A stretch of 24,128 bases of DNA, taken from Elusimicrobiota bacterium. GTDB taxonomy: Bacteria > Elusimicrobiota > Elusimicrobia > UBA1565 > JACRDR01. The stretch spans positions 1 to 24,128 of the forward strand of contig JBGFSC010000050.1 in assembly GCA_041694815.1 (NCBI GenBank). The letters are read 5' to 3'. The translations under genes were made by a program, and so were the position numbers. Below, in pieces: positions 84 through 24,059 of the stretch (its first letter is position 1; each line of letters begins with the position of its first letter). The notes beneath the pieces were generated by a model. The model saw nothing but the letters and a program-made list of their open reading frames with translations. It was not told the DNA's origin and ran no database searches.

Positions 84-114
84 CTTTCGGTAGGTGGTAA
101 CGATGTGCCCGACG
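84..114 (-). repeat. Left copy of a long-range inverted repeat (core 95-114)
   Basis: Reverse complement of 95-114 is CGTCGGGCACATCGTTACCA, identical to 24029-24048. The match extends outward to 28/31. Confidence 0.9.
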
Positions 115-189
115 AGTTCTAAGTATCTGGGCCCTCTGGGGCAGAGTCCCTGGGACCAAAGACTGCTGACCATCTAGGCCTTTGGCCAC

Positions 190-218
190 CTGCCGGATCT
201 CACCCAGAACCGTACAAT
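190..218 (+). promoter_or_regulatory. Putative sigma70 promoter for the 259..1002 gene
   Basis: CTGCCG (190-195)-N17-TACAAT (213-218), followed by a GGAGG RBS at 251-255. Confidence 0.45.
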
Positions 219-258
219 TTCTCCGGAGGACTGCTGCGCCCGTTAGTTTTGGAGGAAT

Positions 259-1002
259 ATGAAAAGAACCTTGATTGCCTTGTCGCTGGCTGCGACGAAT
301 TTCGGCACGTATGGCTATACCGAAGATGTGGAGGACCAGCTGCGTCGAGCAGCAACTCGATCGCGTCCCATCAGCCAAGATACCCGCAAAAAAATCATGG
401 GCGTATTCGGCAAGGTATCAAGCACGAAATACTCAGGCAAAGTGCGATGGCAGAATGACCTGCCCGAGGATACGCCGTTCAAGAAAATCGGCTTGATCGC
501 GGCGATATGCATAGGAGGTCCGAGCTTTGAAGCCTATATCCCGGTCGGAGCGGTGGATTCCTCAGTGGAGGATCCTAATCTGGCCGAATACTTCATCCTA
601 GCCGTCACTAAAGCTGAAAAAGGCTGCGGTGATACGGGACCGACAAAGACCCAATACTCCCAGCCGCTATATTTCAAGGATTTCCCACCAGAACCTGCCG
701 ATGTTCTTCTGACCGGACTCGTCGGCAAGCATCAAACAACAGGCGCACGAACGGTGCCTGACCTTCTCCTTGGACCCGGAAAGAAATGCTCGTTGCAAAT
801 GAACGGCAAAGAGCATGTCTCTATGCCGCCGGAGCTGGAGGCCCTGGAGGGTAAAATCGTCACCTGCAAAGGGCTGCTGTTCGGATCGGTTTTGACGGTA
901 GAAAAATGCCAGCTAGTCAATGGTTTCGTCAAAAACCCTCAGTCGCCATCGGAACTCGTGCGTGTGCACGATGGAGTTATCGTCGGGCCCGGCCCCAGCT
1001 AA
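259..1002 (+). CDS. Hypothetical protein, probably exported (247 aa)
   Basis: ATG with GGAGG just upstream. Signal-peptide-like start MKRTLIALSLAA. No family recognised. GC is lower than in the operon (30/60 at 361-420 versus 38/60 at 1741-1800 and 46/60 at 3241-3300). Confidence 0.7.
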   Translation: MKRTLIALSLAATNFGTYGYTEDVEDQLRRAATRSRPISQDTRKKIMGVFGKVSSTKYSGKVRWQNDLPEDTPFKKIGLIAAICIGGPSFEAYIPVGAVDSSVEDPNLAEYFILAVTKAEKGCGDTGPTKTQYSQPLYFKDFPPEPADVLLTGLVGKHQTTGARTVPDLLLGPGKKCSLQMNGKEHVSMPPELEALEGKIVTCKGLLFGSVLTVEKCQLVNGFVKNPQSPSELVRVHDGVIVGPGPS

Positions 1003-1049
1003 CGATCGCCTAATCGCTTTTTCGATACGTAAACGTCATCGCGGCCCGA

Positions 1050-1079
1050 TTGCCTTCAAGCATCGGCGCGGATTACACT
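1050..1079 (+). promoter_or_regulatory. Putative sigma70 promoter for the small gene
   Basis: TTGCCT (1050-1055)-N18-TACACT (1074-1079). The predicted +1 falls at about the ATG at 1086. Confidence 0.4.
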
Positions 1080-1085
1080 AGGCCT

Positions 1086-1283
1086 ATGGAAACCATGCGA
1101 TTTCAGGGGTCCGATTGGACCCCCGTCTGGCACGGCGCCGAGCCGACCGCCACACTCGCCTTCGACATGCTCCAAGGCAACGGCATCGAGGCGCTCAAGC
1201 GCGCGGAGGCCGAAGTCGAGATCCTCGTGCATCCCCAGGACGCCGACACCGCCAAGGAGCTGCTCCAGGACTGGGCGATTTAG
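1086..1283 (+). CDS. Small DUF2007-like (putative signal-transducing, ferredoxin-like fold) protein, 65 aa
   Basis: Pattern W..V......A.L....L..NGIEA....VEILVHPQDADTAKELL matches what I know of DUF2007. Host-like codon use. ATG 1086 (or 1095) is preferred over TTG 1050. Confidence 0.65.
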   Translation: METMRFQGSDWTPVWHGAEPTATLAFDMLQGNGIEALKRAEAEVEILVHPQDADTAKELLQDWAI

Positions 1284-1302
1284 CGCGCATCCGCGCTTCT
1301 TT
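1282..1302 (+). terminator. Possible weak intrinsic terminator
   Basis: AGCGCG-CATC-CGCGCT hairpin followed by TCTTT, overlapping the TAG stop. Confidence 0.4.
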
Positions 1303-1304
1303 GA

Positions 1305-1333
1305 TTGCCGCGCCGGAGGCAATTTGGTAAACT
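1305..1333 (+). promoter_or_regulatory. Putative main operon promoter (sigma70, extended -10)
   Basis: TTGCCG (1305-1310)-N17-TAAACT (1328-1333) with TG at 1325-1326. It lies about 85 nt upstream of the guaB ATG. Confidence 0.6.
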
Positions 1334-1417: not shown

Positions 1418-2581
1418 ATGGCGTTTTTCATCGGCCGTGACCGAGAGGCCAGGCGAGCTTATGGCTTCGACGAGATCGCGCTGGTCCCGGGGCAGATCAC
1501 CGTCAATCCGGAGGAAGTCGACACCAGCCTGAAGCTGGGTAAGGTCCGGCTCGAGATTCCCTTTTTGGCATCGGCCATGGATGGCGTCGTCGACGTCCCC
1601 TTCGCCATCGCGATGGGCAAGCTGGGCGGCCTGGGCGTGCTCAATCTCGACGGCATCAACACCCGCTACGACAAGCCCCGCGAGGTCGTAGCGCAGATCG
1701 CCTCCGCCGATCCGGAAACCGCCACGAGGCTCGTGCAGGACCTCTACCGCGAGCCGACCAAGGAGAATCTCGTCGCCCGGCGCGTCGAGGAGATCAAGAA
1801 GGCCGGGGTGCACTGCGCGGTCAGCACCATCCCCCAGAACGCCGAGCGCTACGGTTCGATCGCGGCCGAGGCCGGCTGCGACCTCTTCGTCGTACAGTCC
1901 ACCGTCACGACGGTCCGTCATAAAGCAACCAAGTACAAGCCCTTCGACATCGCTCAGTTTTGCAAGAAGATGCCCATCCCCGTCATCGTCGGCAATTGCG
2001 TGACCTACTCCGTCGCCCTCGAGCTAATGGAGGCGGGCGTCTCGGCGCTTTTGGTCGGGGTGGGCCCCGGCGCCGCCTGCACCACCCGCGGCGTGCTGGG
2101 TTTGGGCGTACCGCAGGTCACCGCTACCGTCGACTGCGCCGCCGCGCGCGACTTCTTCTACAAGAAAACCGACCGCTACGTGCCCATCATCACCGACGGC
2201 GGCATGTCGACGGGCGGAGACATCTGCAAGGCCATCGCCTGCGGATCCGACGGGGTCATGGTCGGCTCGGCCTTCGCCAGGACCAAGGAGGCCCCGGGAC
2301 AGGGATTCCATTGGGGCATGGCCACCCCCCACCAGAACCTGCCGCGCGGCACCCGTATCCACGTCGGCGTCACGGGCACCCTCGAGGAGATACTCTACGG
2401 CCCCTCGAGGCTCGACGACGGATCGCAAAATCTAGTCGGGGCGCTTAAGACCTGCATGGGCTCGGTCGGCGCCTCCAACATCAAGGAGATGCAGCTCGCC
2501 GAGATCATCATCGCCCCGGCCATCAAGACCGAGGGCAAATTGTTCCAGAAGGCCCAGCGCATCGGGATGGGGAAATCGTGA
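1418..2581 (+). CDS. guaB: IMP dehydrogenase family protein, CBS-less GuaB3/cyanobacterial-like type
   Basis: [19 protein letters not shown], catalytic Cys loop [21 protein letters not shown]. 387 aa with no CBS pair. Adjacent to guaA. Confidence 0.9.
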
Positions 2582-2600
2582 GCCTCCCCCGGGGGGAGGC
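2582..2600. repeat. GC-rich palindrome between guaB and guaA
   Basis: GCCTCCCCC-G-GGGGGAGGC, with perfect 9-bp arms. No U-tract follows. Confidence 0.75.
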
Positions 2601-2624
2601 GAGCATTGAGGGGGGCTATACATC

Positions 2625-4148
2625 TTGATTGTCGTTTTAGATTTCGGTTCTCAGTACACCCAGCTCATCGCGCGGCGCTTGCGCGAGCTTGAGATATACT
2701 CCGAGATATTGCCTTACAACGCCCCGGCCCGGGAGATACTGGCCAAGGCCCCTAAGGGACTGATCCTTTCGGGCGGGCCCGCCAGCGTGCACCGCTCGGG
2801 GAGCCCTCGACTCGACTTGGGTCCCTTCTCAGGCCTGCCGCTGCTGGGGATCTGCTACGGGATGCAGCTCTTGGTGCACTCGCACGGGGGAGCCGTGGCC
2901 CCGGCGGGCAAGCGCGAGTACGGCGACGCCACGATCTCCGTGGTGGAGCCGGACCCGCTCTTCGACGGGATGGAAGGCGAGCTCAAGGTCTGGATGAGCC
3001 ACGGCGACGGCGTCTTGAAGCTCGGCAACGGCTTCCGCGTGCTCGCGCGCACCCCCGCCGCCCCCTTCGCGGCCATCGCCGACTCCGGCAGGCGCTGGTA
3101 CGGGGTGCAGTTCCACCCCGAGGTGGCGCATACCCCGCAGGGGGCCCGCCTGCTCGAGAATTTCGCGCGGCGCATCTGCTCCGACGAACAGCGCTGGACC
3201 CCGGCCGCGCAGTTGGAACGCTCCCTGGCCGTGATCCGCGAGCTTGTGGGCCCGGGCCGGGCCGTATGCGCCCTGTCCGGCGGCGTCGACTCCTCGGTGG
3301 CGGCCGCGCTGGCGCATCGCGCGCTGGGGGGGCGCCTGCATTCCTTCTACGTCGACACCGGGCTCGGGCGCCTGGGGGACCGCGAGCGCATGCGCGAGCT
3401 TTTCGCGCGCCGGCTGGGCATGCGGCTTAAGATCGTCGACGCCTCGTCCTTGTTCTTGCGGCGGCTGGCCTCGGTCTGTGATCCGGAGCGAAAGCGCAAG
3501 ATCATCGGGCGCGCGTTCATCGAGGTGTTCGAGTCCCAGGCGAGGAGGATCCGGGGGGCGGACTTCCTGGTCCAAGGCACGCTTTACCCCGACGTGATCG
3601 AGTCCGTCTCGGTGCACGGCCCTTCGGCCGTCATCAAGAGCCACCACAACGTAGGCGGGCTTCCCAAGCGGATGCGCCTGCGCCTCGTCGAGCCGCTCCG
3701 ATTCCTGTTCAAGGACGAGGTGCGCCGGCTCGGGCGCGAGCTCGGCCTGCCCGAGGAGGTGCTGGGAGCCCATCCCTTCCCCGGGCCAGGGCTCGCCATC
3801 CGCGTCCTCGGCGCCGTGACCAAGGACAGGCTCGAGCTGCTGCGGCGGGCCGAGGCGATCGTCCAGGAGGAATTCATGAAGAGCGGCTTGTACGAAAAGA
3901 CTTGGCAGGCATTCGCCGTGCTCCTGCCCGTCAAATCGGTCGGGGTCATGGGCGATGAGCGGACGCATCAGCCGGTCGTGGCGCTGCGCGCCGTAGGCAG
4001 CGTCGACGGGATGACCGCCGATTGGGCCCGCCTCCCCTACGATCTGCTGGCGCGGATCTCGAGCCGCATCACCTCGGAGGTGCGGGGCGTCAACCGCGTT
4101 GTCTACGACATCAGCTCCAAGCCGCCCTCCACGATCGAATGGGAATGA
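2625..4148 (+). CDS. guaA: GMP synthase (glutamine-hydrolysing)
   Basis: LDFGSQY, GICYGMQ, QFHPEV, SGGVDS, IKSHHNVGGL, C-terminal KPPSTIEWE. TTG start with a GAGGGG RBS. Confidence 0.98.
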   Translation: MIVVLDFGSQYTQLIARRLRELEIYSEILPYNAPAREILAKAPKGLILSGGPASVHRSGSPRLDLGPFSGLPLLGICYGMQLLVHSHGGAVAPAGKREYGDATISVVEPDPLFDGMEGELKVWMSHGDGVLKLGNGFRVLARTPAAPFAAIADSGRRWYGVQFHPEVAHTPQGARLLENFARRICSDEQRWTPAAQLERSLAVIRELVGPGRAVCALSGGVDSSVAAALAHRALGGRLHSFYVDTGLGRLGDRERMRELFARRLGMRLKIVDASSLFLRRLASVCDPERKRKIIGRAFIEVFESQARRIRGADFLVQGTLYPDVIESVSVHGPSAVIKSHHNVGGLPKRMRLRLVEPLRFLFKDEVRRLGRELGLPEEVLGAHPFPGPGLAIRVLGAVTKDRLELLRRAEAIVQEEFMKSGLYEKTWQAFAVLLPVKSVGVMGDERTHQPVVALRAVGSVDGMTADWARLPYDLLARISSRITSEVRGVNRVVYDISSKPPSTIEWE

Positions 4149-5047
4149 ACGCGCTGGCGCTAATCCAAAGCCGCATTCCAGGCTTGCCTGAACCCAAGCG
4201 GGGAAAGGTGCGGGACATCTATGATCTCGGCGACACGCTGCTCATCGTGGCGACCGACCGGCTATCGGCCTTCGACGTGGTCTTGCCCACGCCGATCCCC
4301 GATAAGGGCCGGGTGCTTACCCAGCTGTCGGAATTCTGGTTCCGCAAGATGCGCCGGATCGTTCCCAACCATTGCATCAGCACAGACCTCGAGGAGATCC
4401 GCCGCCATTTGCCCGCAGGGGCATCGCTCGATCCAAGGGAATTTTCAGGGCGCAGCATGCTGGTACACAAGGCGCGCCGCATCGACGCCGAATGCGTGGT
4501 GCGCGGATACCTGGCCGGATCGGGCTGGAAAGAGTACAGGAAAACGGGTTCGGTCTGCGGACACGCGTTGCCCGCGGGACTTCAGGAGGCGGAAAGGCTT
4601 CCACAGCCGATCTTCACTCCTTCCACGAAGGCCGACGTGGGCCATGACGAGAACATCGATCGAGCCGCCTTGGCGAGCGCCATCGGCCCGGCCTTGGCGG
4701 ATCAGCTAGAGCGCCTCAGCCTGGCCCTCTACACCGAGGCGGCAGAAATGATGCGCGCACGGGGCCTGATCCTCGCCGATACCAAATTCGAGTTCGGACT
4801 TCTCGACGGCCAGACGATCTTGATCGATGAGGTCCTGACTCCGGATTCCTCCCGATTTTGGGACGCTTCCCTTTATAAGATCGGGACTTCCCCCGAAAGC
4901 TTCGACAAGCAGTTCGTGCGAGATTACCTCGAAGCCGTCGGATGGGACAAGCGGCCCCCGGGGCCCGAGCTTCCCCCGAATGTCGTCGCTGGGACCACGG
5001 GGCGTTATCAAGAAGCGCTCGCCAGACTGACCCAGGGGGCCGCGTGA
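4145..5047 (+). CDS. purC: SAICAR synthetase (300 aa)
   Basis: GKVRDIY, ATDRLSAFD, LADTKFEFG, DEVLTPDSSRFW, SFDKQFVRD. Start reassigned to the ATGA overlap with guaA. Confidence 0.97.
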   Translation: MNALALIQSRIPGLPEPKRGKVRDIYDLGDTLLIVATDRLSAFDVVLPTPIPDKGRVLTQLSEFWFRKMRRIVPNHCISTDLEEIRRHLPAGASLDPREFSGRSMLVHKARRIDAECVVRGYLAGSGWKEYRKTGSVCGHALPAGLQEAERLPQPIFTPSTKADVGHDENIDRAALASAIGPALADQLERLSLALYTEAAEMMRARGLILADTKFEFGLLDGQTILIDEVLTPDSSRFWDASLYKIGTSPESFDKQFVRDYLEAVGWDKRPPGPELPPNVVAGTTGRYQEALARLTQGAA

Positions 5048-5523
5048 CGCCCTACCGGGTGGAGATATTCGGCAAGCCCGGCTTCAGCGACCCTGCCGGT
5101 ACCGAGCTCCTCGCCCAATCCGCTTCCGTGGGACTCTCGGGCGCGGCCGAGATACGCGCGGGTAGGATTTACGAGATCGTCGGGCGCCTTTCCCCGGCCC
5201 AAGTCGAGCAGGCCGCCCGGGAACTCCTGGCCGATCCCGTGACCCAGGATTACCGGATCAATGAACAAGCGGTGCCTCCCGCCTTCCTGCTGAGTCCCCA
5301 TTGGCGCGTCGAGATATGGCTCAAGGACGGCGTCTCGGACCCGGAGGAGGAGAGCTTGCGTAAGGGCCTACGCGACCTCGGCTTGCCGGCTCCCGATTCC
5401 ATCCGCGGCGGACGCGTCTACAAGATCGTCGGGCGCTGCCAGCTGCCGCAGATCGAGCGCGTCGCGCGCAAATGGCTCTCGAACCCGCTTATCCACCGCT
5501 CCAGCGTCGAGGCGCCGCGCTGA
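5044..5523 (+). CDS. purS: FGAM synthase subunit PurS with two tandem PurS domains (159 aa)
   Basis: Two repeats of RVEI..K.G.SDP...IR.GR.Y.IVGR...L.[DN]P. GTGA overlap with purC. Directly precedes purL. Confidence 0.88.
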   Translation: MTPYRVEIFGKPGFSDPAGTELLAQSASVGLSGAAEIRAGRIYEIVGRLSPAQVEQAARELLADPVTQDYRINEQAVPPAFLLSPHWRVEIWLKDGVSDPEEESLRKGLRDLGLPAPDSIRGGRVYKIVGRCQLPQIERVARKWLSNPLIHRSSVEAPR

Positions 5524-7985
5524 TGCCCGTCAAGACGTTCAAGCCCGAGGCGCCGCCACCCGCATCCGCCCGCCCGGCGATCGGACTGCGCGACGCCTCG
5601 CCCGCCAAGCTCCAGGATTTAAACCGGCGGCATGGCTGGTCGCTCAACGCGGCCGAGCTTGCCGCCATCTGCCGCCACTTCCGTTCGGTTGGACGGGAAC
5701 CGAGCCGCGCGGAGATGGAGACGATCGCGCAGACTTGGTCGGAGCATTGCAAGCATAAGACGTTCACCGGCGAGATACGCTACCGTGAAGGCGGGCGGAC
5801 CCTGCGCTTTGGCAATCTGCTGCGCGAGACGGTGATGGAGGCCACCCGCCGCCTCAAGAAACCCTGGTGCCTGTCGGTATTCAAGGACAACGCCGGGGTC
5901 GTCGCCTACGATCAGCGCTGGGCCCTGGCCTTCAAGGTGGAAACCCACAACCACCCCTGCGCCCTGGAGCCCTACGGAGGCGCGTCTACCGGCGTCGGAG
6001 GCGTCATCCGCGACATTCTCGGCGTGGGCCTGGGGGCCAAGCCCGTGCTCGGAACGGACGTTTTCTGCCTCTGCCCTCCCGACGGCGCCGACCCCGTCGA
6101 AGGCCCTGCGCCCCGCCTAATGCTCGAGCGCGTCGTCGCCGGAGTGCGCGATTACGGCAACCGCATGGGCATCCCCACATCCGGCGGCGCCATCTGGTTC
6201 GATGAGGCCTTCCGCTTCAATCCCCTCGTCTTCTGCGGTAGCGTCGGACTGCTGCCGCGTTGGGCGGTCCGCAAGGAAGTACGGCCAGGCGACGTCATCG
6301 TCGCCGTTGGCGGCCGCACGGGCAAGGACGGACTGCATGGAGCCACCTTCTCCTCGTCCGGACTGCACGGGGATTCCCCCTCCTCCGCGGTACAGATCGG
6401 CCACGCCATCATGGAAAAGCGCATGCTCGACGTCCTGCTCAAGGCGCGCGACGCCAAGCTCCTGCGCAGCGTCACTGACTGCGGCGCTGGCGGTTTCTCC
6501 TCGGCCATCGGCGAGCTCGGCGCGGGCTGCGGGGCCCGCGTGAAGCTCGACGAGGCCAAGCTCAAGGTCCAGGGCCTCGAGCCGTGGGAAATATGGCTCT
6601 CGGAATCGCAGGAACGCATGATCCTCGCCTGCCCCCCAAAGAATTTAAAGGCATTGCTCGACCTTTTCGACGCCGAGGATGTGGAGTACTCGCTGCTTGG
6701 AGAATTCACCGCCGACCGGCGCCTGAAGGTGGAATTCCGCGGAGAAACGGTCATCGATCTGCCGATGTCATTTTTGCACGAGGGGCTGCCTAAACGGACG
6801 CTTGAAGCGCAGTGGAATCCTCCACCCAAAGTCTCCGCCTCTAGAATTAAATCGGGGTCCGGCTCTTGCTCCGATGCACTGTATGCCCTTCTCTCGCACT
6901 GGAACGTCTGCAGCCGCGCCTGGGTGATACGCCAGTACGATCACGAGGTGCAGGGCGGGGCCGTGATCAAGGCCCTGCAGGGCACCGCCCACGACGGGCC
7001 CGGCGACGCCTGCGTGCATTGGCCGCACGCGGCGACCGGCGAGGTCGACGGGTTTTCGGCCGTCGCGATCGCCCACGGCCTCAATCCAAATTACGGGCGG
7101 CTCGATCCCTACGCCATGGCTCTTTGCTGCGCCGACGAGGCTCTGCGCAACCTAGTGAGCGTCGGCGCCGACGTCTCGCGCGCCTCCTTCCTGGACAATT
7201 TCTGCTGGGGCAATCCCGAGGATCCGCGCACGCTCGGCTCCCTGGTTCGCGCGGCCCTGGGATGCCGCGACGCGGCGCTCGGCTACCAAGTGCCGTTCAT
7301 CTCGGGCAAGGACAGCCTCTACAACGAGTACCGCGACGCCCGTGGAAACAAGCACTCGATCCCCGGCACCCTGCTGATCTCGGCCGTGGCGCCGGTGGAT
7401 GATTTTCGCAAGGCCCTCACCCTGGACTTCAAGGCTCCCGGGAACGCGATCTACCTCGTCGGCTGGACGGCCGAGGAGATGGGCGGATCGCTCTACTCCC
7501 AATGGCGGGGAGACCCACTGGCCGGAGCCGTTCCTTTGCCGTACCCTAAGCGGGCCCGGGCCTGCTTGCGCCTCTTATCGGCGGCCATCGCCAAGGGGCT
7601 CGTCTCCGCCTGCCACGACCTTTCCGAGGGAGGCCTTGGGGTCGCCGCCGCCGAGATGGCCTTTTCGGGTGAGATCGGCGCGCTCCTGGAGCTCGACGAG
7701 GTCTGTCGCCCCAAGGGCCTTCATTCCAACGAAGCGGTGCTTTTCTCCGAATCGCCCAGCCGCTTCCTAGTCGAGGTCGCCTGCGAGAAGGAGAAGGAGT
7801 TCCTCAAGGCGATGAAGGGGGCCATCCTCGCGCGCGTCGGCAGCACCCTCGCCAATCCGGTCCTGCGGATCAAGGGCACCGACGGCTCGGCGCTGCTGGA
7901 GGAGCCCCTGGCCAAACTCAAGGAGGCCTGGATTCGGACGCTGCCCTTGGCCATGCTCGAGCGCCGCAACGGGGCCCACTCATGA
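5523..7985 (+). CDS. purL: FGAM synthase subunit PurL (820 aa)
   Basis: WSEHCKH, KVETHNHP, DCGAGG, SESQERM, QYDHEV, ISGKDSLYN, HDLSEGG. TGATG overlap with purS. Confidence 0.97.
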   Translation: MPVKTFKPEAPPPASARPAIGLRDASPAKLQDLNRRHGWSLNAAELAAICRHFRSVGREPSRAEMETIAQTWSEHCKHKTFTGEIRYREGGRTLRFGNLLRETVMEATRRLKKPWCLSVFKDNAGVVAYDQRWALAFKVETHNHPCALEPYGGASTGVGGVIRDILGVGLGAKPVLGTDVFCLCPPDGADPVEGPAPRLMLERVVAGVRDYGNRMGIPTSGGAIWFDEAFRFNPLVFCGSVGLLPRWAVRKEVRPGDVIVAVGGRTGKDGLHGATFSSSGLHGDSPSSAVQIGHAIMEKRMLDVLLKARDAKLLRSVTDCGAGGFSSAIGELGAGCGARVKLDEAKLKVQGLEPWEIWLSESQERMILACPPKNLKALLDLFDAEDVEYSLLGEFTADRRLKVEFRGETVIDLPMSFLHEGLPKRTLEAQWNPPPKVSASRIKSGSGSCSDALYALLSHWNVCSRAWVIRQYDHEVQGGAVIKALQGTAHDGPGDACVHWPHAATGEVDGFSAVAIAHGLNPNYGRLDPYAMALCCADEALRNLVSVGADVSRASFLDNFCWGNPEDPRTLGSLVRAALGCRDAALGYQVPFISGKDSLYNEYRDARGNKHSIPGTLLISAVAPVDDFRKALTLDFKAPGNAIYLVGWTAEEMGGSLYSQWRGDPLAGAVPLPYPKRARACLRLLSAAIAKGLVSACHDLSEGGLGVAAAEMAFSGEIGALLELDEVCRPKGLHSNEAVLFSESPSRFLVEVACEKEKEFLKAMKGAILARVGSTLANPVLRIKGTDGSALLEEPLAKLKEAWIRTLPLAMLERRNGAHS

Positions 7986-8755
7986 AGCTGCCCAAGGCCC
8001 TGATCCTGCGCTGCGCCGGCACTAATTGCGAACGGGAAACGGCCAATGCCTTCGCCATGGCCGGGGCCCGTCCCGAGCTGGCGCACATCAACGAGCTTAA
8101 GTCCGGCCGCGTGAAGCTGCTGGAGGCCGATATCTTTGTCATCCCGGGTGGTTTTTCCTACGGCGACGACGTCGCCGCGGGCCGGTTGCTCGCCAACGAG
8201 CTCAAACGCTTCGTCGTCGACCTGCGCCAATTCATCCGTTCCGGCCGCCCGGTGCTGGGCGTCTGCAACGGCTTCCAGGTTCTCGTCAAGGCCGGGTTCC
8301 TGCCAAACAACCGCCAGGAGCTGCAGTCGGCGAGCTTCACCTTCAACGACTCCAACCGCTTCGAGGCCCGCTGGACGCACCTGCGCATCAACACCCATTC
8401 GAACTGCCTCTTCACCAAGGGCCTGCCCGAAATGATCGAGCTGCCCGTCGCCCACGCGGAAGGCAAGTTTGTCGTCAAGACGCCGAAGGTGCTCGAGGAG
8501 CTCAAGCGCAGCAATTCGATCGTGCTGCGCTACGTCAATGAGACGGGAGAGCCCGCCGGCTATCCCTACAACCCGAACGGCTCCGTCTTCAACATCGCGG
8601 CCATCTCCAATCCCGAAGGAAACTGCCTGGGCCTAATGCCCCACCCGGAACGATTCATCACGCGCTACCACCATCCCAACTGGACCCGGCAGACCTTCCA
8701 CAAGGAGGGCGTTGGGCTCGAGATGCTGCGCAACGCCGTGCGGCACGTCTCATGA
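7982..8755 (+). CDS. purQ: FGAM synthase glutaminase subunit PurQ
   Basis: GTNCE, GGFSYGD, GVCNGFQ, AHAEG, NPNGS, MPHPER. Confidence 0.97.
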   Translation: MKLPKALILRCAGTNCERETANAFAMAGARPELAHINELKSGRVKLLEADIFVIPGGFSYGDDVAAGRLLANELKRFVVDLRQFIRSGRPVLGVCNGFQVLVKAGFLPNNRQELQSASFTFNDSNRFEARWTHLRINTHSNCLFTKGLPEMIELPVAHAEGKFVVKTPKVLEELKRSNSIVLRYVNETGEPAGYPYNPNGSVFNIAAISNPEGNCLGLMPHPERFITRYHHPNWTRQTFHKEGVGLEMLRNAVRHVS

Positions 8756-8770
8756 CGTTTTGAACCTTTT

Positions 8771-11861: not shown

Positions 11862-12811
11862 ACTGGACCCGCAAGGACCTCTTGGGGATCGAGGAACTCT
11901 CCTCAAGCGAAATCGAGCTGCTGCTCGATACCGCGGGCGAATGCAAGCGCGACTTTAAATCCGGCAAAGTCGGCGCTGATTTGCGTGGTCATACGCTCGC
12001 CTTCGTGTTCTCGGAACCCTCCACGCGTACCCGTTCCTCCTTCGAGATCGCCGCGCGCCGGCTGGGCGCGGAGGTACTGGGATTCTCGGTCTCGGCCTCG
12101 AGCGTACTTAAGGGGGAAAGCCTCGTCGACACCCTGCTCAACCTCCAGGCGATGGGAGTGGGCTTCTTCGTCATCCGCCATGAGCTCTCCGGAGCGGTCG
12201 CCCAGGCGGCCGGCTCCGTCCGGGCGCATCTCATCAACGCCGGAGACGGCGCCCACGAGCATCCCACGCAGGCCTTGCTCGATCTCTACACCTTGCGGGA
12301 AAGGAAAGGTCGCATCGAGGGGCTCAAGGTCGTCATTGTGGGAGACGTCCTCCACAGCCGCGTGGCGCGCTCCAATATTTGGGGCTTAAAAAAGCTCAAG
12401 GCGCGCGTGACGGTCTGCGGGCCGGCCACCCTGATCCCGAAGGATGTAGAGAAATGGGGCGTTGCCGTCAGCCATGATCTATCTCGGGCCATCAAAGGCG
12501 CCGATGCCGTCAACGTATTGCGCCTGCAGCTGGAGCGGCAAAAAGAGAATCTCATCCCCTCCCTGGGCGAGTACTACGAGAGCTATGGGCTTACCTCCGA
12601 GAGACTGCGCGACGCCGAGCCCGATTGTCTCATCCTCCATCCCGGACCGATGAACCGCGCCGTCGAGATATCATCGGAGTTGGCGGACGGGCCCCGCTCG
12701 GCGATCCTAGAGCAGGTCGCCAATGGGGTCGCCGTGCGCATGGCCGCTCTCAAGCTGCTGGCCTCCGTGTCCTCGGACGCGAAGGCTCGAAAGACGAAGG
12801 TGCGCGCATGA
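11858..12811 (+). CDS. pyrB: Aspartate carbamoyltransferase catalytic subunit
   Basis: [47 protein letters not shown]. Confidence 0.98.
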
Positions 12812-15179: not shown

Positions 15180-15850
15180 CCGACGTCATCGCCGCCCTCG
15201 ACGTCGATACCTTGGCCCAAGCGGAACGGCTGCTCGAGCGGCTGCGCGGGGCCATCGACCATTACAAGATCGGCTTGGAGCTCTTCACCGCGCACGGACC
15301 TCGCGCCGTCGAGCTGGTCCACCGCTACGGAGGCAAGGTCTTCTTGGACCTGAAGATGTTCGACATACCCCGGACGGTCGAGCGAGGGGTGCGCCGGGCG
15401 CAGGAGCTCGGGGTTTTCTCCCTCTCGGTGCACCTGTGGGGAGGCAGGGGGATGCTCGCGGCGGCAGCCTCCGTGAGTCCCCGTCCCAAGCTCTGGGGGG
15501 TGACGGTGCTGACCTCTTGGGGCGCCGAGGATTTGCGCGGAATAGGTCCAGGATTGAACCTTAAGCCCACGGTGCTGCGCCTCGCGAAGCTAGGCAAGCG
15601 CCTCGGTTTGGACGGCACCATCTGCTCCGCGCAGGAGGCGCCCGACTTACTTAAGGCCTTGGGCCCCGGAAGCTGTTTGATCACGCCCGGAATCCGCCCC
15701 GCCGGTTCCGACCGGCACGATCAGAAACGCGTGTCGACCCCCGAGGTGGCCTCCCGTCTCGGCGTCCGTTACCTGGTGATCGGCCGTCCGATCACGGAAG
15801 CCAGCTCGCCTCGCGAGGCGGCGCTCGATATCTTGGGCTCGATCCAATGA
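15176..15850 (+). CDS. pyrF: Orotidine-5'-phosphate decarboxylase
   Basis: ALD, YKIG, DLKMFDIPRT (DxKxxDIxxT), VTVLTS, TPGIR, DQKR, IGRPIT. Confidence 0.96.
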   Translation: MTDVIAALDVDTLAQAERLLERLRGAIDHYKIGLELFTAHGPRAVELVHRYGGKVFLDLKMFDIPRTVERGVRRAQELGVFSLSVHLWGGRGMLAAAASVSPRPKLWGVTVLTSWGAEDLRGIGPGLNLKPTVLRLAKLGKRLGLDGTICSAQEAPDLLKALGPGSCLITPGIRPAGSDRHDQKRVSTPEVASRLGVRYLVIGRPITEASSPREAALDILGSIQ

Positions 15851-16434
15851 ACCTCGACGGCGAGCAGCTCCTGCGCGAGATCGAGCGGCGCGGCGCGCTG
15901 CAGCGCGGGCATTTCCTCCTTTCCTCGGGCCTCCACAGTGACCAGTACGTCCAATGCGCCCTGCTTTTCCGCGACGGCGCGTTCGCCGAATCTCTAGGCC
16001 GAGCACTGGCCTCGCTGGCTCCCGAACCTCCCGACTGCGTCGTTTCTCCGGCCTTGGGAGGGCTGCTCATCGGCCACGAGGTGGCCAAGGCGCTGCGGGC
16101 GCCGTTTATCTTCGCCGAGCGCGAGGGCGGTGCCATGGCGCTGCGGCGCGGGTTCTCTCTCGAGGAGGGGAGGACGGCCCTCATCGTCGAGGATGTCTTG
16201 ACGACGGGCAAGTCCACACTGGAGGTAGCCTCGCTGCTGCGTTCCCTCGGGGCGCGGGTCGCCGCAGTCCTCTCGGTCATCGACCGCGGCGTGGAACAGT
16301 CCTCGCTCGGCTTTCCCGCGCGCAGCCTGCTCCGGCTCCCGCTGCGCGCGCAGCCCCCCGGGGAGTGCGGGCTGTGCCGATTGGGCGCTCCGCTGGTCAA
16401 GCCGGGAAGCCGGCCGGAGCCCAAGCCGTGCTGA
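15847..16434 (+). CDS. pyrE: Orotate phosphoribosyltransferase (Thermus-like type with C-terminal CxxC)
   Basis: GHFLLSSGLHS, PALGG, FAER, PRPP motif VEDVLTTGKS, C-terminal CGLC...KPGSR. Confidence 0.95.
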   Translation: MNLDGEQLLREIERRGALQRGHFLLSSGLHSDQYVQCALLFRDGAFAESLGRALASLAPEPPDCVVSPALGGLLIGHEVAKALRAPFIFAEREGGAMALRRGFSLEEGRTALIVEDVLTTGKSTLEVASLLRSLGARVAAVLSVIDRGVEQSSLGFPARSLLRLPLRAQPPGECGLCRLGAPLVKPGSRPEPKPC

Positions 16435-17396
16435 CGTATAAAAAAGCCGGCGTCGACATCGACCTGGCCGACCGCTTCGTCGAATTCCTGCAAAAGAAAT
16501 CGCCGGCCATCGGCGGCTTTTCCGGGCTCTTCCCACTCAAGTTTACGGGCGCGGGGGATTACTGCCTGGCCGCCTGCACCGACGGCGTGGGCACCAAGCT
16601 TAAGATCGCATTCCTGCTGGACCGGCACGAGACCGTCGGCATCGACCTCGTCGCCATGTGCGTCAACGACCTCATCACCTGCGGCGCCAAGCCGCTTTTC
16701 TTCCTGGATTATTACGCCACCGGCAAGCTCCATCTCGAGCGCTCCAAGCGAATTCTTTCAGGGATACTCGAAGGATGCCGGCAGGGCCGGCTGGCCCTCT
16801 TGGGCGGGGAGACCGCCGAGATGCCCGGCTTCTACCATGGCGGCGAATACGACTTGGCCGGGTTCGCGGTGGGCATCGTCGCGCGCTCGGAGATCATCGA
16901 CGGCACGAAGATATTCCCCGGCGATCTCATCCTCGGGCTTCCTTCCTCGGGGCTTCATTCCAACGGGTATTCCTTGGCGCGCAAGGCCCTCGGCCCCCGC
17001 GAGCTGCGGCGGCTCGGGCCGCGGCTGCTGACTGCGACGCGCATCTACGTAGAGGAGATCGCCTTGCTGCAGCGCGCTTTCCTGGAAGCCGGCCACATCA
17101 TCCTCGGGATGGCCCACATCACGGGCTCCGGCATCCCCGGCAACCTCCCGCGCGTGCTGCCGCGCGGCTGCAAGGCGGTGCTTCATACGAAGGCCTGGAA
17201 GGTGCCTCCCCTTTTCCGGCTTATCCAGGAGAAGGGCGGCATCGGGGAGGCCGAGATGTGGAGCACCTTCAACATGGGCATCGGCATGGCGATCGTGATC
17301 CGGCCCAATTCCCTGGCCCTGGCCCTCAAGCTCCTGCCCCAGGCCCGCCTTATCGGCGAGATCATCGGCGGAAAACAAGAGGTGCTGCTCAAGTGA
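16428..17396 (+). CDS. purM: AIR synthetase (322 aa)
   Basis: TYKKAGVDI, TDGVGTK, AMCVND, GGETAEMPG, SGLHSNGYSL, HITG, FNMGIG. GTG start at 16428. Confidence 0.97.
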   Translation: MLTYKKAGVDIDLADRFVEFLQKKSPAIGGFSGLFPLKFTGAGDYCLAACTDGVGTKLKIAFLLDRHETVGIDLVAMCVNDLITCGAKPLFFLDYYATGKLHLERSKRILSGILEGCRQGRLALLGGETAEMPGFYHGGEYDLAGFAVGIVARSEIIDGTKIFPGDLILGLPSSGLHSNGYSLARKALGPRELRRLGPRLLTATRIYVEEIALLQRAFLEAGHIILGMAHITGSGIPGNLPRVLPRGCKAVLHTKAWKVPPLFRLIQEKGGIGEAEMWSTFNMGIGMAIVIRPNSLALALKLLPQARLIGEIIGGKQEVLLK

Positions 17397-19594
17397 TGCG
17401 TATCGCCGTCTTCGCGTCCGGGGAAGGGACGAACCTCCAGGCCTTGATCGACGCCGCGCGCAACGGGCGCATCCGCGCGAGCGTTGCCCTGGTCGTCTCG
17501 AGCGTCGGCGATGCCGGCGCGCTGCGCCGGGCCGCCCGAGCCGGGATTGCCGGGGTCGTGCTGCGGCCCGCGGACTACGCCGGCCCGGATGAATACAGCG
17601 CCGCCTTGGCGGCCCTCTGCAAGCAGCACGAGATCGGCCTCATCTGCCTCGCCGGTTTCCTGCTGCAGCTTAAAAGCTCGCTTTTGGAAGCCTACCCCCA
17701 GCGCATCCTCAACATCCACCCCGCCCTGCTCCCCGCCTTCGGCGGCAAGGGCATGTACGGCTCCCGCGTCCACGAGGCGGTGCTGCGCTCCGGAGCCAAG
17801 GTCAGCGGGTGCACGGTGCATTTCGTCGACGAGGTCTACGACCACGGCCCGATCATCTCCCAAACAACGGTCCCGGTACTGGCGAACGACACGCCTGGCT
17901 CGCTCGCCGCGCGCGTGCGCGCGCAGGAGCATTGGGCCTATCCGGAGGCCGTCCGCCTATTCTGCGAGGGCCGTCTCCGCGTCGGTCCCGGGGCAAGGGT
18001 GGAGCTGCTACCGTCACCCAGGGAAGAGTCGCCGCGCATACGCCGGGCCCTGGTGTCGGTGGCTGACAAGACGGGCCTCGTGGAGTTCTGCCGAGGCATC
18101 CATGAGCTGGGGCTGGAGATTGTCTCGACTTCGGGAACGGCCAAGGCGCTGCGCGAGGCCGGCCTCGAGGCCCGCTCCCTAGACTCCATCACCGGCTTTC
18201 CGGAGATACTGCAGGGCAGGGTCAAAACCCTCCATCCCAAGATCCACGGAGGCATCCTGCTGCGGCGTGGAGACCCGGAGCAGGAGCGCGAGGCCGCCAA
18301 CTTCGGCCTGGAGCCGATCGACATGGTCGTCGTCAATCTCTACCCCTTCGCCCGAGCGGCCGCCGGCGCCCATTCTCCTTACAGCCGGGAGGTGATAGAG
18401 CAGATCGACATCGGTGGGGTCACGCTGATCCGGGCGGCCGCGAAAAACTTCGAGAACGTCGCCGTCGTCGTCTCGCCGGAAGACTACCCCGCGGTGCTCA
18501 AGGAGCTCGCGCTCGGGCAAGGGCAGCTAGCCCTGGAAACCCGCCGACGCCTCGCCTTGTCGGCCTTCCGGCACACGGCCGGCTATGACGCGATGATTTC
18601 GGCCGCCTGGGACGAAACGCCTTCCCCGGAGGCCGAGGGCGGGCCGTTCCCGCAAACGATGACCTTTTCGCTCGCGAAGGCCCAGGAGCTCCGCTACGGA
18701 GAGAACCCGCACCAGCGCGCCGCGCTGTACACGCGCCAATCGCCCGGGAGCCGGGCTTCCTTCGAGCAGCTCCAGGGCAAGGAACTCTCCTTTAACAACC
18801 TACTCGACGCCGCGGGCAGCTGGGAGGCCGCCTGCGAATTCTCCGAACCGGCCGCGGTGATCTTCAAGCACGGCACGCCCTGCGGGATCGCTACTGGCAC
18901 TTCCGCGGCGCAAGCCTTGGAAAGGGCCTGGGCCTGCGACCCCCTATCTGCCTTCGGGGGCGTGATCGCCGTCAACCGTCCGTTCGACCGAGCAATGGCC
19001 GATTTTCTCTCCAAGCGTTTCGTGGAGGTGGTTTCGGCTCCCCAATTCGAACCGGAGGCCGCGTTCGTCCTGCGCGAGAAGGCGAACCTGAGGCTATTGG
19101 AGCGCTCCGCCGCGCCGGGAGCGCGGCTGGAATGCCGCAGCGTCGGAGAGGAGTTCTTGGTCTACGAGCCGGATCGTCTGCTCTTCGGCGATGCGGTGCG
19201 CGTCGTGACCCGCCGCAAGCCCGCGGCCGAGGAGGAAGAGGCCCTGCGCTTCGCCTGGACCTGCTGCAAGCACGTCAAGAGCAACGCGATCGTCCTGGCG
19301 GACGCCCGATCGACCGTCGGCATCGGGGCGGGGCAGATGTCCCGCGTCGACTCGGTGCACATGGCCGGGGCGAAATACAAGGCCTTCCTCAAGGAGAATC
19401 CGGAGCCGCGGCCACTGGTGCTAGCCTCCGACGCCTTCTTTCCCTTCCGCGACGGGCTCGACGCCGCAGCCGCGTTGGGGATCACCGCCGTCATCCAACC
19501 CGGGGGCTCGGTGCGCGATGCCGAGGTCATTGCCGCCGCCGACGAGAGGGGGCTGGCGATGCTGTTTACCGGCATGAGGCACTTTAAACATTAA
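17396..19594 (+). CDS. purH: Fused GAR transformylase (PurN) plus AICAR transformylase/IMP cyclohydrolase (PurH), 732 aa
   Basis: PurN part: ASGEGTNLQAL, LAGF, NIHPALLP, GCTVHFV, DHGPII. PurH part from about 18038: RALVSVADK, STSGT, GRVKTLHP, IDIGG, LRYGENPHQ, KSNAI, GAGQMSR, SDAFFPF, RHFKH. No stop between the two. Confidence 0.95.
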   Translation: MRIAVFASGEGTNLQALIDAARNGRIRASVALVVSSVGDAGALRRAARAGIAGVVLRPADYAGPDEYSAALAALCKQHEIGLICLAGFLLQLKSSLLEAYPQRILNIHPALLPAFGGKGMYGSRVHEAVLRSGAKVSGCTVHFVDEVYDHGPIISQTTVPVLANDTPGSLAARVRAQEHWAYPEAVRLFCEGRLRVGPGARVELLPSPREESPRIRRALVSVADKTGLVEFCRGIHELGLEIVSTSGTAKALREAGLEARSLDSITGFPEILQGRVKTLHPKIHGGILLRRGDPEQEREAANFGLEPIDMVVVNLYPFARAAAGAHSPYSREVIEQIDIGGVTLIRAAAKNFENVAVVVSPEDYPAVLKELALGQGQLALETRRRLALSAFRHTAGYDAMISAAWDETPSPEAEGGPFPQTMTFSLAKAQELRYGENPHQRAALYTRQSPGSRASFEQLQGKELSFNNLLDAAGSWEAACEFSEPAAVIFKHGTPCGIATGTSAAQALERAWACDPLSAFGGVIAVNRPFDRAMADFLSKRFVEVVSAPQFEPEAAFVLREKANLRLLERSAAPGARLECRSVGEEFLVYEPDRLLFGDAVRVVTRRKPAAEEEEALRFAWTCCKHVKSNAIVLADARSTVGIGAGQMSRVDSVHMAGAKYKAFLKENPEPRPLVLASDAFFPFRDGLDAAAALGITAVIQPGGSVRDAEVIAAADERGLAMLFTGMRHFKH

Positions 19595-19595
19595 G

Positions 19596-19604
19596 TGATA
19601 CAAT
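19596..19604 (+). promoter_or_regulatory. Putative internal extended -10 promoter for carAB
   Basis: TG-A-TACAAT in an AT-rich patch, 7 nt upstream of ATG 19612. No clear -35. Confidence 0.45.
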
Positions 19605-19611
19605 GGATGAA

Positions 19612-20751
19612 ATGAAGAAACCGGCCGTTCTCGCCCTCGAAGATGGCTCGGTCTTTCGCGGCTTCTCTTGCGGCGCCCAAGGCGAGTCGTCCGGCGAGCT
19701 GGTCTTCAATACCTCCATGATGGGCTACCAGGAGGTACTCACCGATCCCTCCTACAAGGGGCAGCTCGTCGTCATGACGTATCCGCAGATCGGCAATTAC
19801 GGGATCACCGCCGCCGACTACGAATCGGCGCGGCCGTTCTTGGAAGGGTTCGTCGTGTGGGAACTCTGCCGCCATCCCTCGAACTGGGAGTCGGTGGAGA
19901 CCGTCGATTTCTTCCTCAAACGCAACGGAACCCCCGGCATCGAAGGGGTCGATACCCGCGCCTTGACGATACGCCTGCGCCAGGCGGGCTCCCTCCGGGC
20001 CGTGCTCTCTAGCGTCGACCTGGACGCGGAGCGCCTGATCCGGAAGGCGCGCCAATGCCCGCCTATGTCGGGGCAGAACCTAGCCAAGGCGGTCAGCTGC
20101 AGCAAGCCGTACGAATGGACGGGCCGGCGCGATGGGCAGCGTTCCGCTGGCTCGAGAACCCGTGGGCACCACGTCATCGTCTTTGATTTCGGCGTCAAGC
20201 GCGGGATCCTGCGCTGCCTGGGCTCCTTGGGCTGCCGCGTGAGCGTCGTGCCCGCTTGGACCTCCGCGGCGGAAGCGCTCGCCCTGCGGCCGGACGGGAT
20301 CGTGCTCTCCAATGGCCCCGGCGACCCCGAGCCCTTAAGCGACGTCGCCAAGGAGATCCGGCGCCTGGTCGAGACGGGGCTGCCCACCCTCGGCATCTGT
20401 CTCGGCCACCAGCTGCTTGGCCTCGCCTTCGGGGGACGGACATTCAAGCTCAAATTCGGCCATCACGGCTCCAACCATCCGGTCCAAGACCTACGGACGG
20501 GGCGCATCGAGATCACGTCCCAAAACCACGGCTTCTGCGTGGACATGCAATCTTTGCCCGCGGACCTCGAGACCACCCACATCAACCTCAACGATCGGAC
20601 CTCGGAGGGCATGCGGCACCGAAGCCTCCCCATCTTCTCGGTGCAATACCACCCGGAGGCTTCCGCGGGTCCGCACGATTCGCGCTACATTTTTGAGCGC
20701 TTCGCCCAGGCGATGGCCCGGCGCGAGGGAGGCCGGAAGGCTCATGCCTAA
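19612..20751 (+). CDS. carA: Carbamoyl-phosphate synthase small subunit (alternative start 19603)
   Basis: [51 protein letters not shown]. Confidence 0.98.
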
Positions 20752-23700
20752 GCGCACCGATATCCAGAAAATCCTCGTCGTGGGCTCGGGCCCCATCGTC
20801 ATCGGCCAAGCCTGCGAGTTCGATTATTCGGGCACCCAAGGCGCCAAGGCCCTAAGGGAGGAAGGCTACAACGTCGTGCTAGTCAATTCCAACCCGGCCA
20901 CCATCATGACCGACCCGCAGCTGGCCGAGCGCACCTATATCGAACCGTTGACCCCCGAGTTCCTGGAGATGATCATCGAGAGGGAGCGGCCGCAGGCAAT
21001 GCTCTCGACGCTGGGGGGCCAGACCGCGCTCAACCTGGCCACGGCGCTGGCCGAGCGAGGGGTGCTCGCCAAATATGGCGTCGAACTGCTCGGCGCCAAG
21101 CTGGAGGCGATCCGCAAGGCGGAGGACCGCCAGTTGTTTAAGGCCGCCATGCAGGAGGCTTCGCTAGACCTTCCCAAAAGCCGCATCGTCACCGACATCC
21201 GGGAGCTACAGGAGGTCTCGCGCGACCTGGGATTCCCAATCATCATCCGCGCCTCCTTCACCTTGGGCGGAACGGGCGGCGGTATCGCCTACCATCTAGA
21301 AGAGCTCCGCTCCTGTGTGGCGGCCGCCTTGGAGGCCAGCCCCGTTAAGCGCGTGCTGCTGGAGGAATCCGTCATCGGCTGGAAGGAATACGAGCTCGAG
21401 GTGATGCGCGACGGCAAGGACAATTTCGTGGTCATCTGCTCCATCGAGAACCTCGACCCGATGGGGGTGCACACTGGGGATTCCATCACCGTCGCCCCGG
21501 CCCAGACCCTGACCGACCGGCAATACCAGGAGATGCGCGACGAGGCCAAGCGCGCCGTCAGTGTCATCGGGGTCGAGACGGGCGGCTGCAACGTCCAGTT
21601 CGGCGTCGACCCCAAGACCGGCCGGCGCGTGATCATCGAGATCAATCCGCGCGTCTCGCGCTCCTCGGCCCTCGCCTCCAAGGCCACTGGATTTCCGATC
21701 GCCAAGATCGCCACGAAGCTGGCCGTCGGCTATTCCTTAGACGAGATTCCCAACGACATCACGCGCAAGACCCCGGCCAGCTTCGAGCCCGCCATCGACT
21801 ACGTCGTCACGAAGGTGCCCCGCTTCGCCTTCGAGAAGTTCCAAAGCTCCAGCGAATATACCCTAGACACCACGATGAAATCGGTGGGCGAGGTGATGGC
21901 GATCGGCCGCACCTTCAAGGAATCCATCCAGAAAGCCTTGCGCAGCCTCGAGATCGGCAAGGCGGGCCTGGAATCGGGGGAATTCGCCTTGGGGGAGCAG
22001 CCCTCAGCCGCGGAGGAAGAGCGCCTGCTGCGCAAGCTTTCCTTACCGTGCGCCGAGCGTGTATTCGCCGTCAAGGCGGCCTTGCAGCGAGGGCTTTTCC
22101 CCAAGGAAATCGCCGATATCTCCTCCATCGATCCGTGGTTCCTGCACCAGTTTCAGGAGCTGGTGGCCTTCGAGCAGGCCTTGAAGCGTTCACCCCTGAC
22201 CCCTCAGCTCCTGCGGGAAGCCAAGGCGCTCGGTTTCTCGGACGAGCAGATCGGGAAGCTCTGCGCCCGCTCGGCGGCATCGGTGCGCCGGCTACGGCGG
22301 CGTTGGGATCTGCGCCCCGCCTTCTCCTCCGTCGATACCTGCGCGGCGGAATTCGAGGCCGAAACTCCCTATTTCTACTCCACCTACTCCTCGACTCCCC
22401 CGCCCCGATCCGTCCGCAAGGGCGAGGGGCGCGCGAAAAACCGCAAGATCGCGATACTCGGCTCGGGCCCCAACCGCATCGGGCAGGGCATCGAATTCGA
22501 CTATTGCTGCGTGCACGCCTCGCAGGCCCTCAAGGCGGCGGGATACCGGACGATCATGATCAACTGCAACCCAGAGACGGTATCCACCGACTACGACATC
22601 TCCGATCGCCTGTATTTCGAGCCGCTGACCTTGGAGGACGTTCTCGAGGTGCTCGACTTCGAGCGGCCGGAGGGCGTGATCGTCCAATTCGGCGGTCAGA
22701 CCCCGCTCAACCTCACCCAGGGCCTGCACCGCGCCGGGATCCGGATCCTGGGGACTTCCTCCGCCTCGATCGACATGGCCGAAAGCCGGGAGCGCTTCGG
22801 CGCGCTACTTAAGCGCCTGCGCATCCCCGCCCCCGCTTACGGCATCGCCGGCGGCGTGCGCCACGCCCTGCGCATCGCGCGGCGGATCGGCTATCCCGTG
22901 ATGGTGCGCCCCAGCTACGTGCTGGGCGGGCGGGCCATGGAGACGGTCTATGACGAAGCGAGCCTCAAACAATACGTGCTCCGGGCCGCCAAGGCCTCCG
23001 AGCACCCTGCCTTGCTCATCGACCGATTCCTTTCCGACGCCACCGAGGTCGATGTCGACGCGGTCTGCGACGGCAAGAATGTCTTCATCGGCGGCATCAT
23101 GGAGCATATCGAGGAGGCTGGTATCCACTCGGGCGATTCCGCGTGCACGATCCCCGCGCATTCCCTAACTCCCGAGCAGCTCGAGCGGATCTCGGACTAC
23201 ACGCACCGCCTGGCGCGGGCCCTGAAGGTGGTGGGGCTGCTTAACATCCAATTCGCCGTCAAGGACAACGTCGTTTACGTCCTGGAGGCCAATCCCCGTG
23301 CCTCGCGTACCGTGCCATTCGTCAGCAAGGCCACGGGCCTTCCCTTGGCCAAGATCGCGGCCCGGGTGATGGCCGGCGCGTCGCTTAAGGGCCTCCTCCC
23401 CAAGGAGCTCCTCGGGCACAAGATCCCTCCGCTGCCCTATACGGCCACCAAGGAGGTGGTCCTGCCCTTCATCAAGTTCCGCGGCGTGGATCCCATGCTA
23501 GGGCCGGAAATGAAGTCCACGGGCGAGGTGATGGGCATCGACCTCGATTTTTCCCGTTCCTTCGCCAAGGGCCAGCTGGCCTCCGGCATGTCGCTGCCCG
23601 TATCGGGTGCGGTGTTCATCAGCGTGCGCGATCAGGACAAGCCGGAAATACTGCCGGTGGCCACCGCCCTGCGCCAATTCGGCTTCACGATCCACGCCAC

Positions 23701-24025
23701 GAAGAACACCCACCGCTTCTTTGAGCGGCACGGCATCGAGGCCAAGCACGTCTACAAGTTGGGCGAGGGAAAGCCCGACGCCATCGACCTGCTCAAGCAG
23801 CGGAGCTTGAGCCTCGTCATCAATACCCCCTCGGGCAAGCGCTCCCATTCCGACGGCTTCGCCATACGCCGCACCGCCCTGGAGCTCAATATCCCGACCA
23901 TCACCAACATCCATTCCTGCCAAGCCGCCTTGGGCGCCGTGGCGGTGCTGCGCCAGGCGCCTCTACAGGTCTGCGCGCTCCAGGATTATCACAAGCGGCT
24001 CGCCTATAAGGCGCCCAGCTTGTGA
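20744..24025 (+). CDS. carB: Carbamoyl-phosphate synthase large subunit (1093 aa)
   Basis: [37 protein letters not shown], second half [28 protein letters not shown]-terminal MGS domain. Confidence 0.99.
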
Positions 24026-24028
24026 GGA

Positions 24029-24059
24029 CGTCGGGCACATCGTTACCAGCTAACGAACG
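24029..24059 (+). repeat. Right copy of the long-range inverted repeat (core 24029-24048)
   Basis: CGTCGGGCACATCGTTACCA starts 3 nt after the carB stop and is the inverted match of 95-114. Confidence 0.9.

Follow-up and report, generated by a model that had tools for sequence, protein, structure and literature searches.

Does a pair of inverted repeats that encloses a block of core metabolic genes mark a unit able to move or invert, or does it record where an assembly stopped? The question is raised by a 24,128-nucleotide (nt) stretch of DNA from an Elusimicrobiota bacterium (assembly GCA_041694815.1, contig JBGFSC010000050.1), called the window here at its full length, in which an operon for purine and pyrimidine synthesis lies between two 31-nt arms (Table 1). 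A first-pass annotation offered several readings of these arms: the ends of two related elements lying outward, the boundaries of an invertible or transferable prototrophy cassette, or a dispersed repeat or protein-binding site. We find that the inverted pair is a real feature and that it most likely consists of ordinary element ends, brought to light because the assembly broke on either side of a native operon. More specifically, two insertion sequence (IS)-like elements of the same orientation probably lie outward of the arms, one contributing its left and the other its right terminal inverted repeat; the intervening DNA would be ordinary chromosome of this uncultured bacterium.

An inverted pair at opposite ends of a contig

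Positions 95-114 are the exact reverse complement of 24029-24048 (20/20), and when the arms are extended outward (84-114 versus 24029-24059) 28 of 31 positions match; direct comparison thus bears out the pair as the first-pass annotation described it. On the inner side, identity breaks off at a single base; outward, it fades. The pair is the longest exact inverted match within the window, the runner-up being 16 nt. At up to 3 mismatches the 20-mer occurs at just two sites in the window, a result obtained in 0 of 100 shuffles, and no further copy appears there at up to 6 mismatches. The annotation held that such a match is not expected by chance, and we agree: in 200 Markov simulations (100 of order 2, 100 of order 4) no match of 20 nt arose, and independent, identically distributed bases give an expectation of about 1.2e-3 per window. 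A chance match or an assembly artefact (a fold-back or chimera) might take some encouragement from the simulated maximum of 19 nt, reached twice in 200, and from the contig having been seen once. We nevertheless consider this origin scarcely credible, given the failure of any simulation to reach 20 nt, the match of 8 of the next 11 bases as well, and the noncoding, terminal position of both arms; in a fold-back the match would continue without error as far as the tips of the contig, whereas here the flanks differ and the ends share no overlap of 8-139 nt, whichever orientation is considered. A test for a circular contig was also negative. The arms translate in one frame as V-G-H-I-V-T (24026-24052 on the plus strand; 52-117 on the minus strand), which is probably incidental.

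The position of the pair suggests what it marks. The window is a complete contig, and the protein of an orphan open reading frame (ORF) near its left end and PyrB are each recorded on a single contig of 24,128 nt. The inner edges of the arms lie 114 nt (left) and 100 nt (right) from opposite contig ends. Random placement would put both arms within 114 nt of opposite ends with a probability of about 4.5e-5, and we therefore take arms and contig ends to be causally linked; the cluster appears bracketed because the window is a whole contig. Outside both copies the DNA is AT-richer, as annotated (42% GC in 1-83 and 46% from 24060 to the end, against 66% in the operon), the composition of the outer flanks departing from that of mostly coding windows by z values of -3.8 and -4.5. 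The two flanks are mutually unrelated, their local alignment score being matched by 994 of 1000 shuffles. An outward ORF begins at 66 on the minus strand, 48 nt beyond the inner edge of the left arm, and is cut off by the contig end after 22 residues, with a second ATG at 42; it is located where a transposase would start and is a candidate for such a start.

Table 1. Coordinates of the arms, flanks and principal features in the window (GC3, GC content at third codon positions)
Feature	Position	Strand	Remarks
Left outer flank	1..83	-	42% GC; extends to contig end
Left arm, 31 nt	84..114	-	Exact core 95-114; probably the terminal inverted repeat of an element beyond the left contig end
Orphan ORF, 247 residues	259..1002	+	GC 53.5%, GC3 0.59; N-terminus signal-peptide-like by eye
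Possible degenerate third arm copy	981..1009	+	Last codons and stop of orphan ORF; same first base as main arms
65-residue ORF	1086..1283	+	Host-like composition, GC3 0.86; weak DUF2007 match below curated cut-off
Best sigma-70-like site before operon	1305..1333	+	8/12, 17-nt spacer, TG before -10; inside the arms
Purine/pyrimidine operon, 18 ORFs	1418..24025	+	Gap-free, biggest gap 43 nt; GC3 0.75-0.89
Right arm, 31 nt	24029..24059	+	Exact core 24029-24048; 3 nt after carB stop
Right outer flank	24060..24128	+	46% GC; extends to contig end; unrelated to left outer flank

We think it likely that one IS-like element is present beyond each contig end, as two copies or close relatives sharing an orientation. 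If the same element end were present on both sides, the match would extend over the full 100 nt; it does not, so that one left and one right end would be facing the operon. A left end and a right end of one family should resemble an imperfect inverted pair with unrelated interiors, as is seen here. The transposase would bind the repeat and cut at or within a few bases of its inner edge. An operon of essential, overlapping genes extending over 22.6 kb may tolerate no insertion, in which case the nearest permitted sites would flank it. The gap of 3 nt to the carB stop would fit either an insertion or an adjacent deletion stopped by an essential gene. The assembler would then have broken within the repeated elements on each side. 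The bracketing would then largely reflect how contigs end. Of the readings in the first-pass annotation, the ends of two related elements lying outward is accordingly the one we prefer; it fits the whole-contig ends, the sharp inner edge and the unrelated AT-rich flanks.

This explanation has precedents in the literature. Assembly breaks caused by repeats leave repeat sequence of length k at contig ends (PMC10914622), and IS often sit at contig ends (PMC3129680). IS inverted repeats are given as 10-40 bp (PMC9330008), a range that includes the 28/31 pair and is the general description of terminal inverted repeats in DDE elements; tabulated repeat conservation runs from 17/21 to 29/34 (PMC3196728), to which 28/31 is comparable. 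The pair resembles the ends of DDE elements on contigs in being an imperfect inverted pair of 20-31 bp with a sharp target-side edge, unrelated interiors and lower GC, in having an ORF start just inside one end, and in its own position about 100 nt from the contig ends (PMC3129680, PMC9330008).

Points of difficulty and comparison with known elements

Several results weigh against two outward IS-like elements. (i) The exact 18-nt core was found at 30 loci in a scan of GTDB; once 11 copies of one Streptomyces/Kitasatospora locus are collapsed, this is about the number, 17, that uniform-base arithmetic predicts. None of the 30 continues the match into the 31-mer (6 of the next 14 nt at best), and neither Elusimicrobiota nor the source genome is represented among them, so that the scan yielded no second copy of the family. 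(ii) Plasmid and phage blastn searches with both ends and with 1-1420 gave chance-level matches or none. (iii) The end lengths, 114 and 100 nt, differ by 14 nt, so one k-mer size does not explain both. (iv) The arms share no TG or TGT terminus at a common register. (v) The z values of the flanks are inflated by the normally higher AT content of intergenic relative to coding DNA, and the sole long host intergenic region has 60% GC. (vi) The 22-residue outward peptide on the left, a query that gives little search power, was unmatched in Pfam, NCBIfam, PHROGs, plasmid tblastn, 1.84 billion representatives and a word-index search. (vii) No transposase or recombinase family was recognized among the 19 main ORFs or the end ORFs, in keeping with the annotation's remark that none is visible. 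Fragments of 20-38 residues likewise had no Pfam match up to E=10, and protein searches with the open frame at the right end were without a match.

The core lies in one conserved context in 11 Streptomyces/Kitasatospora genomes (L004-L008, L012, L017, L020, L025, L027, L028; approximately 10001-10018); its flanks there are unrelated to those of the window, and we therefore take the occurrence to be a coincidence. Two pairs of GTDB loci near contig ends were set aside when the one member of each that was inspected (L026, L021) proved to lie beside or in ordinary genes. The longest arm match, in Sphingomonas (E=6), was also rejected: it lies at the terminus of an ORF resembling an IS3-family transposase gene and does not coincide with the end of an element. 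A 20-mer match in Burkholderia lies in a region without annotation. Scans for Rfam families, transfer RNAs, promoters and terminators gave nothing above chance at the arms. There is no regularly spaced arm copy in the 83 or 69 nt outward, as a clustered regularly interspaced short palindromic repeat (CRISPR) array would have, and no Rfam match.

Assignment to a family is hampered by the features in which the pair is unlike DDE ends: no transposase or family was found, there is no recognized terminal dinucleotide, and the two end lengths are 14 nt apart. Ends of IS3, IS481 and most IS1202 elements start with TGT (10.1101/2022.12.17.520857), ISLxc2 being an example (PMC2516522), and IS1202 elements of the ISTde1 subgroup have been reported in Elusimicrobia (10.1101/2022.12.17.520857). 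The arm length is in the range of IS481, one member of which has 29/34 (PMC3196728), and as in these three families a TGT is present, 8 nt before the right arm (24021) and over the carB stop. Unlike them, the left arm has TTA at the TGT register, and no TGT is shared at any of 16 registers; the catalytic region of an rve-type DDE transposase, as expected for IS481, would lie beyond the contig. The loose likeness to IS481 subterminal repeats that the annotation mentioned fails on these grounds: TGT is lacking on the left, no further copy of the 20-mer exists in the window at up to 6 mismatches, and in either outer flank the best 12-mer identity is 8/12.

A second, tentative lead is the IS5 family (IS427/IS1031 groups), with GA(A/G) termini, short targets of the TA/TNA type and a transposase N-terminus of the DUF4096 type. 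If the true ends lay 5 nt further in, at 119 and 24024, they would start GAA and GAG, with TTA on the left target side. The 14-residue start from the ATG at 42 may resemble the N-terminus of an IS5-family (IS427/IS1031) transposase; Pfam gave no match. IS1237, of the IS5 family, starts with GAG and has a TTA/TAA target. Against this lead, just two of the five extra bases match, as many as chance would give, TTA/TAA is absent from the right target side, and Pfam is silent. No IS5 or IS481 reference element was found in eight plasmid stretches of 49-50 kb and no reference transposase in 40 loci, and the available portions of PMC10045372 and PMC13343696 give no end sequences.

The DNA between the left arm and the operon

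The left arm is separated from guaB3 by 1,303 nt, which hold the orphan ORF and the small DUF2007-like ORF. The DNA inside the left arm is also AT-richer (56% GC in 115-258 and 53.5% in 259-1002), and the left arm is therefore not at a composition boundary; foreign-looking DNA spans 1 to about 1085. The orphan ORF encodes a singleton for which we found no homolog, family, atlas match or Protein Data Bank match, and its single-sequence fold has a predicted local distance difference test score (pLDDT) of 35. The sigma-70-like candidate downstream of it falls below the 9/12 threshold of our promoter scan.

The last codons of the orphan ORF provide the right arm's best gapped match elsewhere in the window (981-1009), one of borderline significance. 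Under two scoring schemes, 18 of 300 and 2 of 300 shuffled arms did as well across the window, as did 4 of 3000 within 126-1085; with the left arm as query the match was not significant, and nhmmer gave E=3.8. Together with the left arm, in inverted orientation, this possible copy brackets only the orphan ORF. In the shared V-G-H-I-V-T frame, the right arm and the third copy run into TAA at an identical position and the left arm sits within a minus-strand ORF of 42 codons, which is likewise probably incidental. If the third copy is real, the motif would be a small dispersed family in foreign DNA, not a pair dedicated to the operon.

The arms could instead be copies of a short dispersed noncoding repeat, be it the end of a miniature inverted-repeat transposable element (MITE), a repetitive extragenic palindromic (REP)-like element or a dimeric protein-binding site, the contig end being close by for a related or a different reason. 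The right arm contains a 6-bp dyad with a 5-nt spacer at 24040-24056, of which the left arm retains 5 of 6 pairs, and the left arm and the possible third copy precede same-sense gene starts by 48 and 105 nt. We think this unlikely, while granting that the dyad and the third copy speak for it. One pair of the dyad is lost in the left arm; 20 exact bases plus 8 of 11 would be long for an operator; a 31-nt repeat, being shorter than k-mers in common use, would not interrupt a contig some 100 nt beyond it; and there is no Rfam match, nor is the third copy significant by nhmmer.

The orphan ORF also looks somewhat like a gene cassette: GTTAG stands 17 nt before its start and a heptamer ending in AAC lies over its stop, and no attC was found. 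On this basis the arms might be integron-like or other attachment (att) sites, the outer half of the arm resembling the start of attC and the orphan ORF representing a cassette. The low GC content and orphan status of the ORF, the GTTAG at 242 and the recurrence of the AAC-ending heptamer (997-1003, and again at 24048-24054) would fit. We regard the proposal as very doubtful. No GTT follows within 150 nt of the third copy or in the 74 nt that remain after the right copy, the left arm has no AAC, and no attC-like fold is present; taking the consensus as RYYYAAC ... GTTRRRY, no strict attC core pair exists in 1-1420 or 23800-24128. An attC would, moreover, place the conserved 20 nt outside the site.

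The operon, its inheritance and the question of a cassette

The first-pass annotation had the pair bracketing the entire nucleotide-biosynthesis cluster. On the right this holds, for the arm adjoins carB at the 3-nt distance annotated (carB ends at 24025 and the arm begins at 24029). On the left it does not, the arm being 1,303 nt away, and the cluster itself is not entire: purA, purB, purK and pyrG are absent, and the gap-free tiling has no room for any of them. The genes run in the order guaB3, guaA, purC, purS, purL, purQ, purF, purD, purE, pyrB, pyrC, pyrD, pyrF, pyrE, purM, purN-purH, carA, carB. Synthesis of inosine monophosphate (IMP) halts without PurB, and with purB missing the block is therefore not self-sufficient.

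Several lines of evidence bear on whether the block has moved. Codon use throughout the operon is host-like, and GC3 is uniform (0.75-0.89). Two of the 18 genes were tested, and neither points to movement of the operon as a unit: PurL has a best plasmid match of 38%, and PyrB is a singleton whose best non-self match, among at least 119, is 78% identical. Among the 119 non-self matches listed, 17 name an organism, comprising 12 Elusimicrobiota, 3 Omnitrophota, 1 Proteobacteria and 1 "bacterium." In a quick IQ-TREE phylogeny of all 120 rows with a midpoint root, the window protein falls in a 14-row clade (SH-aLRT support of 92) with 3 Elusimicrobiota rows, a Proteobacteria-labelled row and 9 unnamed rows, and Elusimicrobiota labels also occur on both sides neighbouring this clade. 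The nearest 4-row subclade holds the Proteobacteria-labelled protein, which is 76% identical, and among GuaB3 look-alikes the best cluster is found most often in Verrucomicrobiota. As far as composition and one gene tree allow, the operon is probably Elusimicrobiota chromosome with no sign of recent transfer.

These data bear directly on an active composite transposon, in which two flanking elements would have moved the 24-kb block between loci or genomes. A left and a right end facing the cluster have the formal geometry of a composite (PMC9330008), the right arm adjoins carB, and a chromosomal block between two related element ends recalls transposons of the Tn5, Tn10 and Tn6097 type; the Proteobacteria-labelled PyrB and the Verrucomicrobiota GuaB3 cluster might be taken as signs of exchange. 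Of the two related flanking IS that define a composite, the contig holds only the inner 100-114 nt of each, and, unlike Tn5, Tn10 and Tn6097, no outer ends, target duplication, second location or transfer are seen, and the cargo is 24 kb of core metabolism. With PyrB a singleton among Elusimicrobiota-labelled rows, PurL so distant from plasmid proteins and codon use host-like, such a transposon is improbable; lacking purA, purB and pyrG, the block could not by itself confer prototrophy.

The inverted orientation and the 20-bp exact core would also suit sites at which recombination inverts a 24-kb segment, or the termini of a single inward element spanning 84-24059. Both are very improbable. 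Frequent inversion should branch the de Bruijn graph at 95 and 24048, but the contig continues for another 94 and 80 nt; the arms enclose the candidate promoter together with every operon gene, so that flipping would not switch expression; and no recombinase was found in the window. For an inward element, no target duplication longer than 2 nt occurs at any of 30 registers. The prototrophy cassette, transferable or invertible, that the first-pass annotation entertained thus fares poorly: composition is host-like, PyrB has no near-identical relative and is nested among Elusimicrobiota-labelled rows in the one tree, PurL finds no close plasmid counterpart, the pathway is incomplete, an inward element has left no target duplication, and the contig geometry is unlike an inversion branch.

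If the arms are, as we favour, the ends of two separate IS-like elements, they matter little in themselves, element ends at contig edges being common. The case mainly shows that assembly breaks can mimic a bracketed cassette. The 31-nt end, absent from the exact scan of GTDB representatives and from the plasmid and phage searches, could still serve as a marker for an unclassified mobile element in this little-studied phylum. It is a distant prospect that an uncatalogued Elusimicrobiota IS-like family flanks the 24-kb operon, with most of de novo purine and pyrimidine synthesis, and can mobilize or invert it as a unit, such that lineages gain or lose nucleotide synthesis in one step. Had the block moved in this way, this would be an uncommon instance of a transposon carrying core nucleotide synthesis; our literature search found no paper describing one, which is weak evidence of absence.

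The operon has some features of its own. Papers on Elusimicrobiota (10.1101/765248, PMC11257099) do not, in the portions available, mention purine or pyrimidine. Here the de novo genes for both are merged in one 22.6-kb operon, the ORFs mostly overlapping, with purM-purN-purH and carAB located after the pyr genes. No full-length GuaB is encoded within the cluster; the IMP dehydrogenase (1418-2581, plus strand) is of the short GuaB3 type, matching TIGR01304 above cut-off. The 159-residue PurS (5044-5523, plus strand) has two tandem PurS domains, with the family matches falling in separate halves. At 17396-19594 on the plus strand, PurN and PurH occupy one 733-residue frame with a short linker and no stop between them, probably a PurN-PurH fusion.

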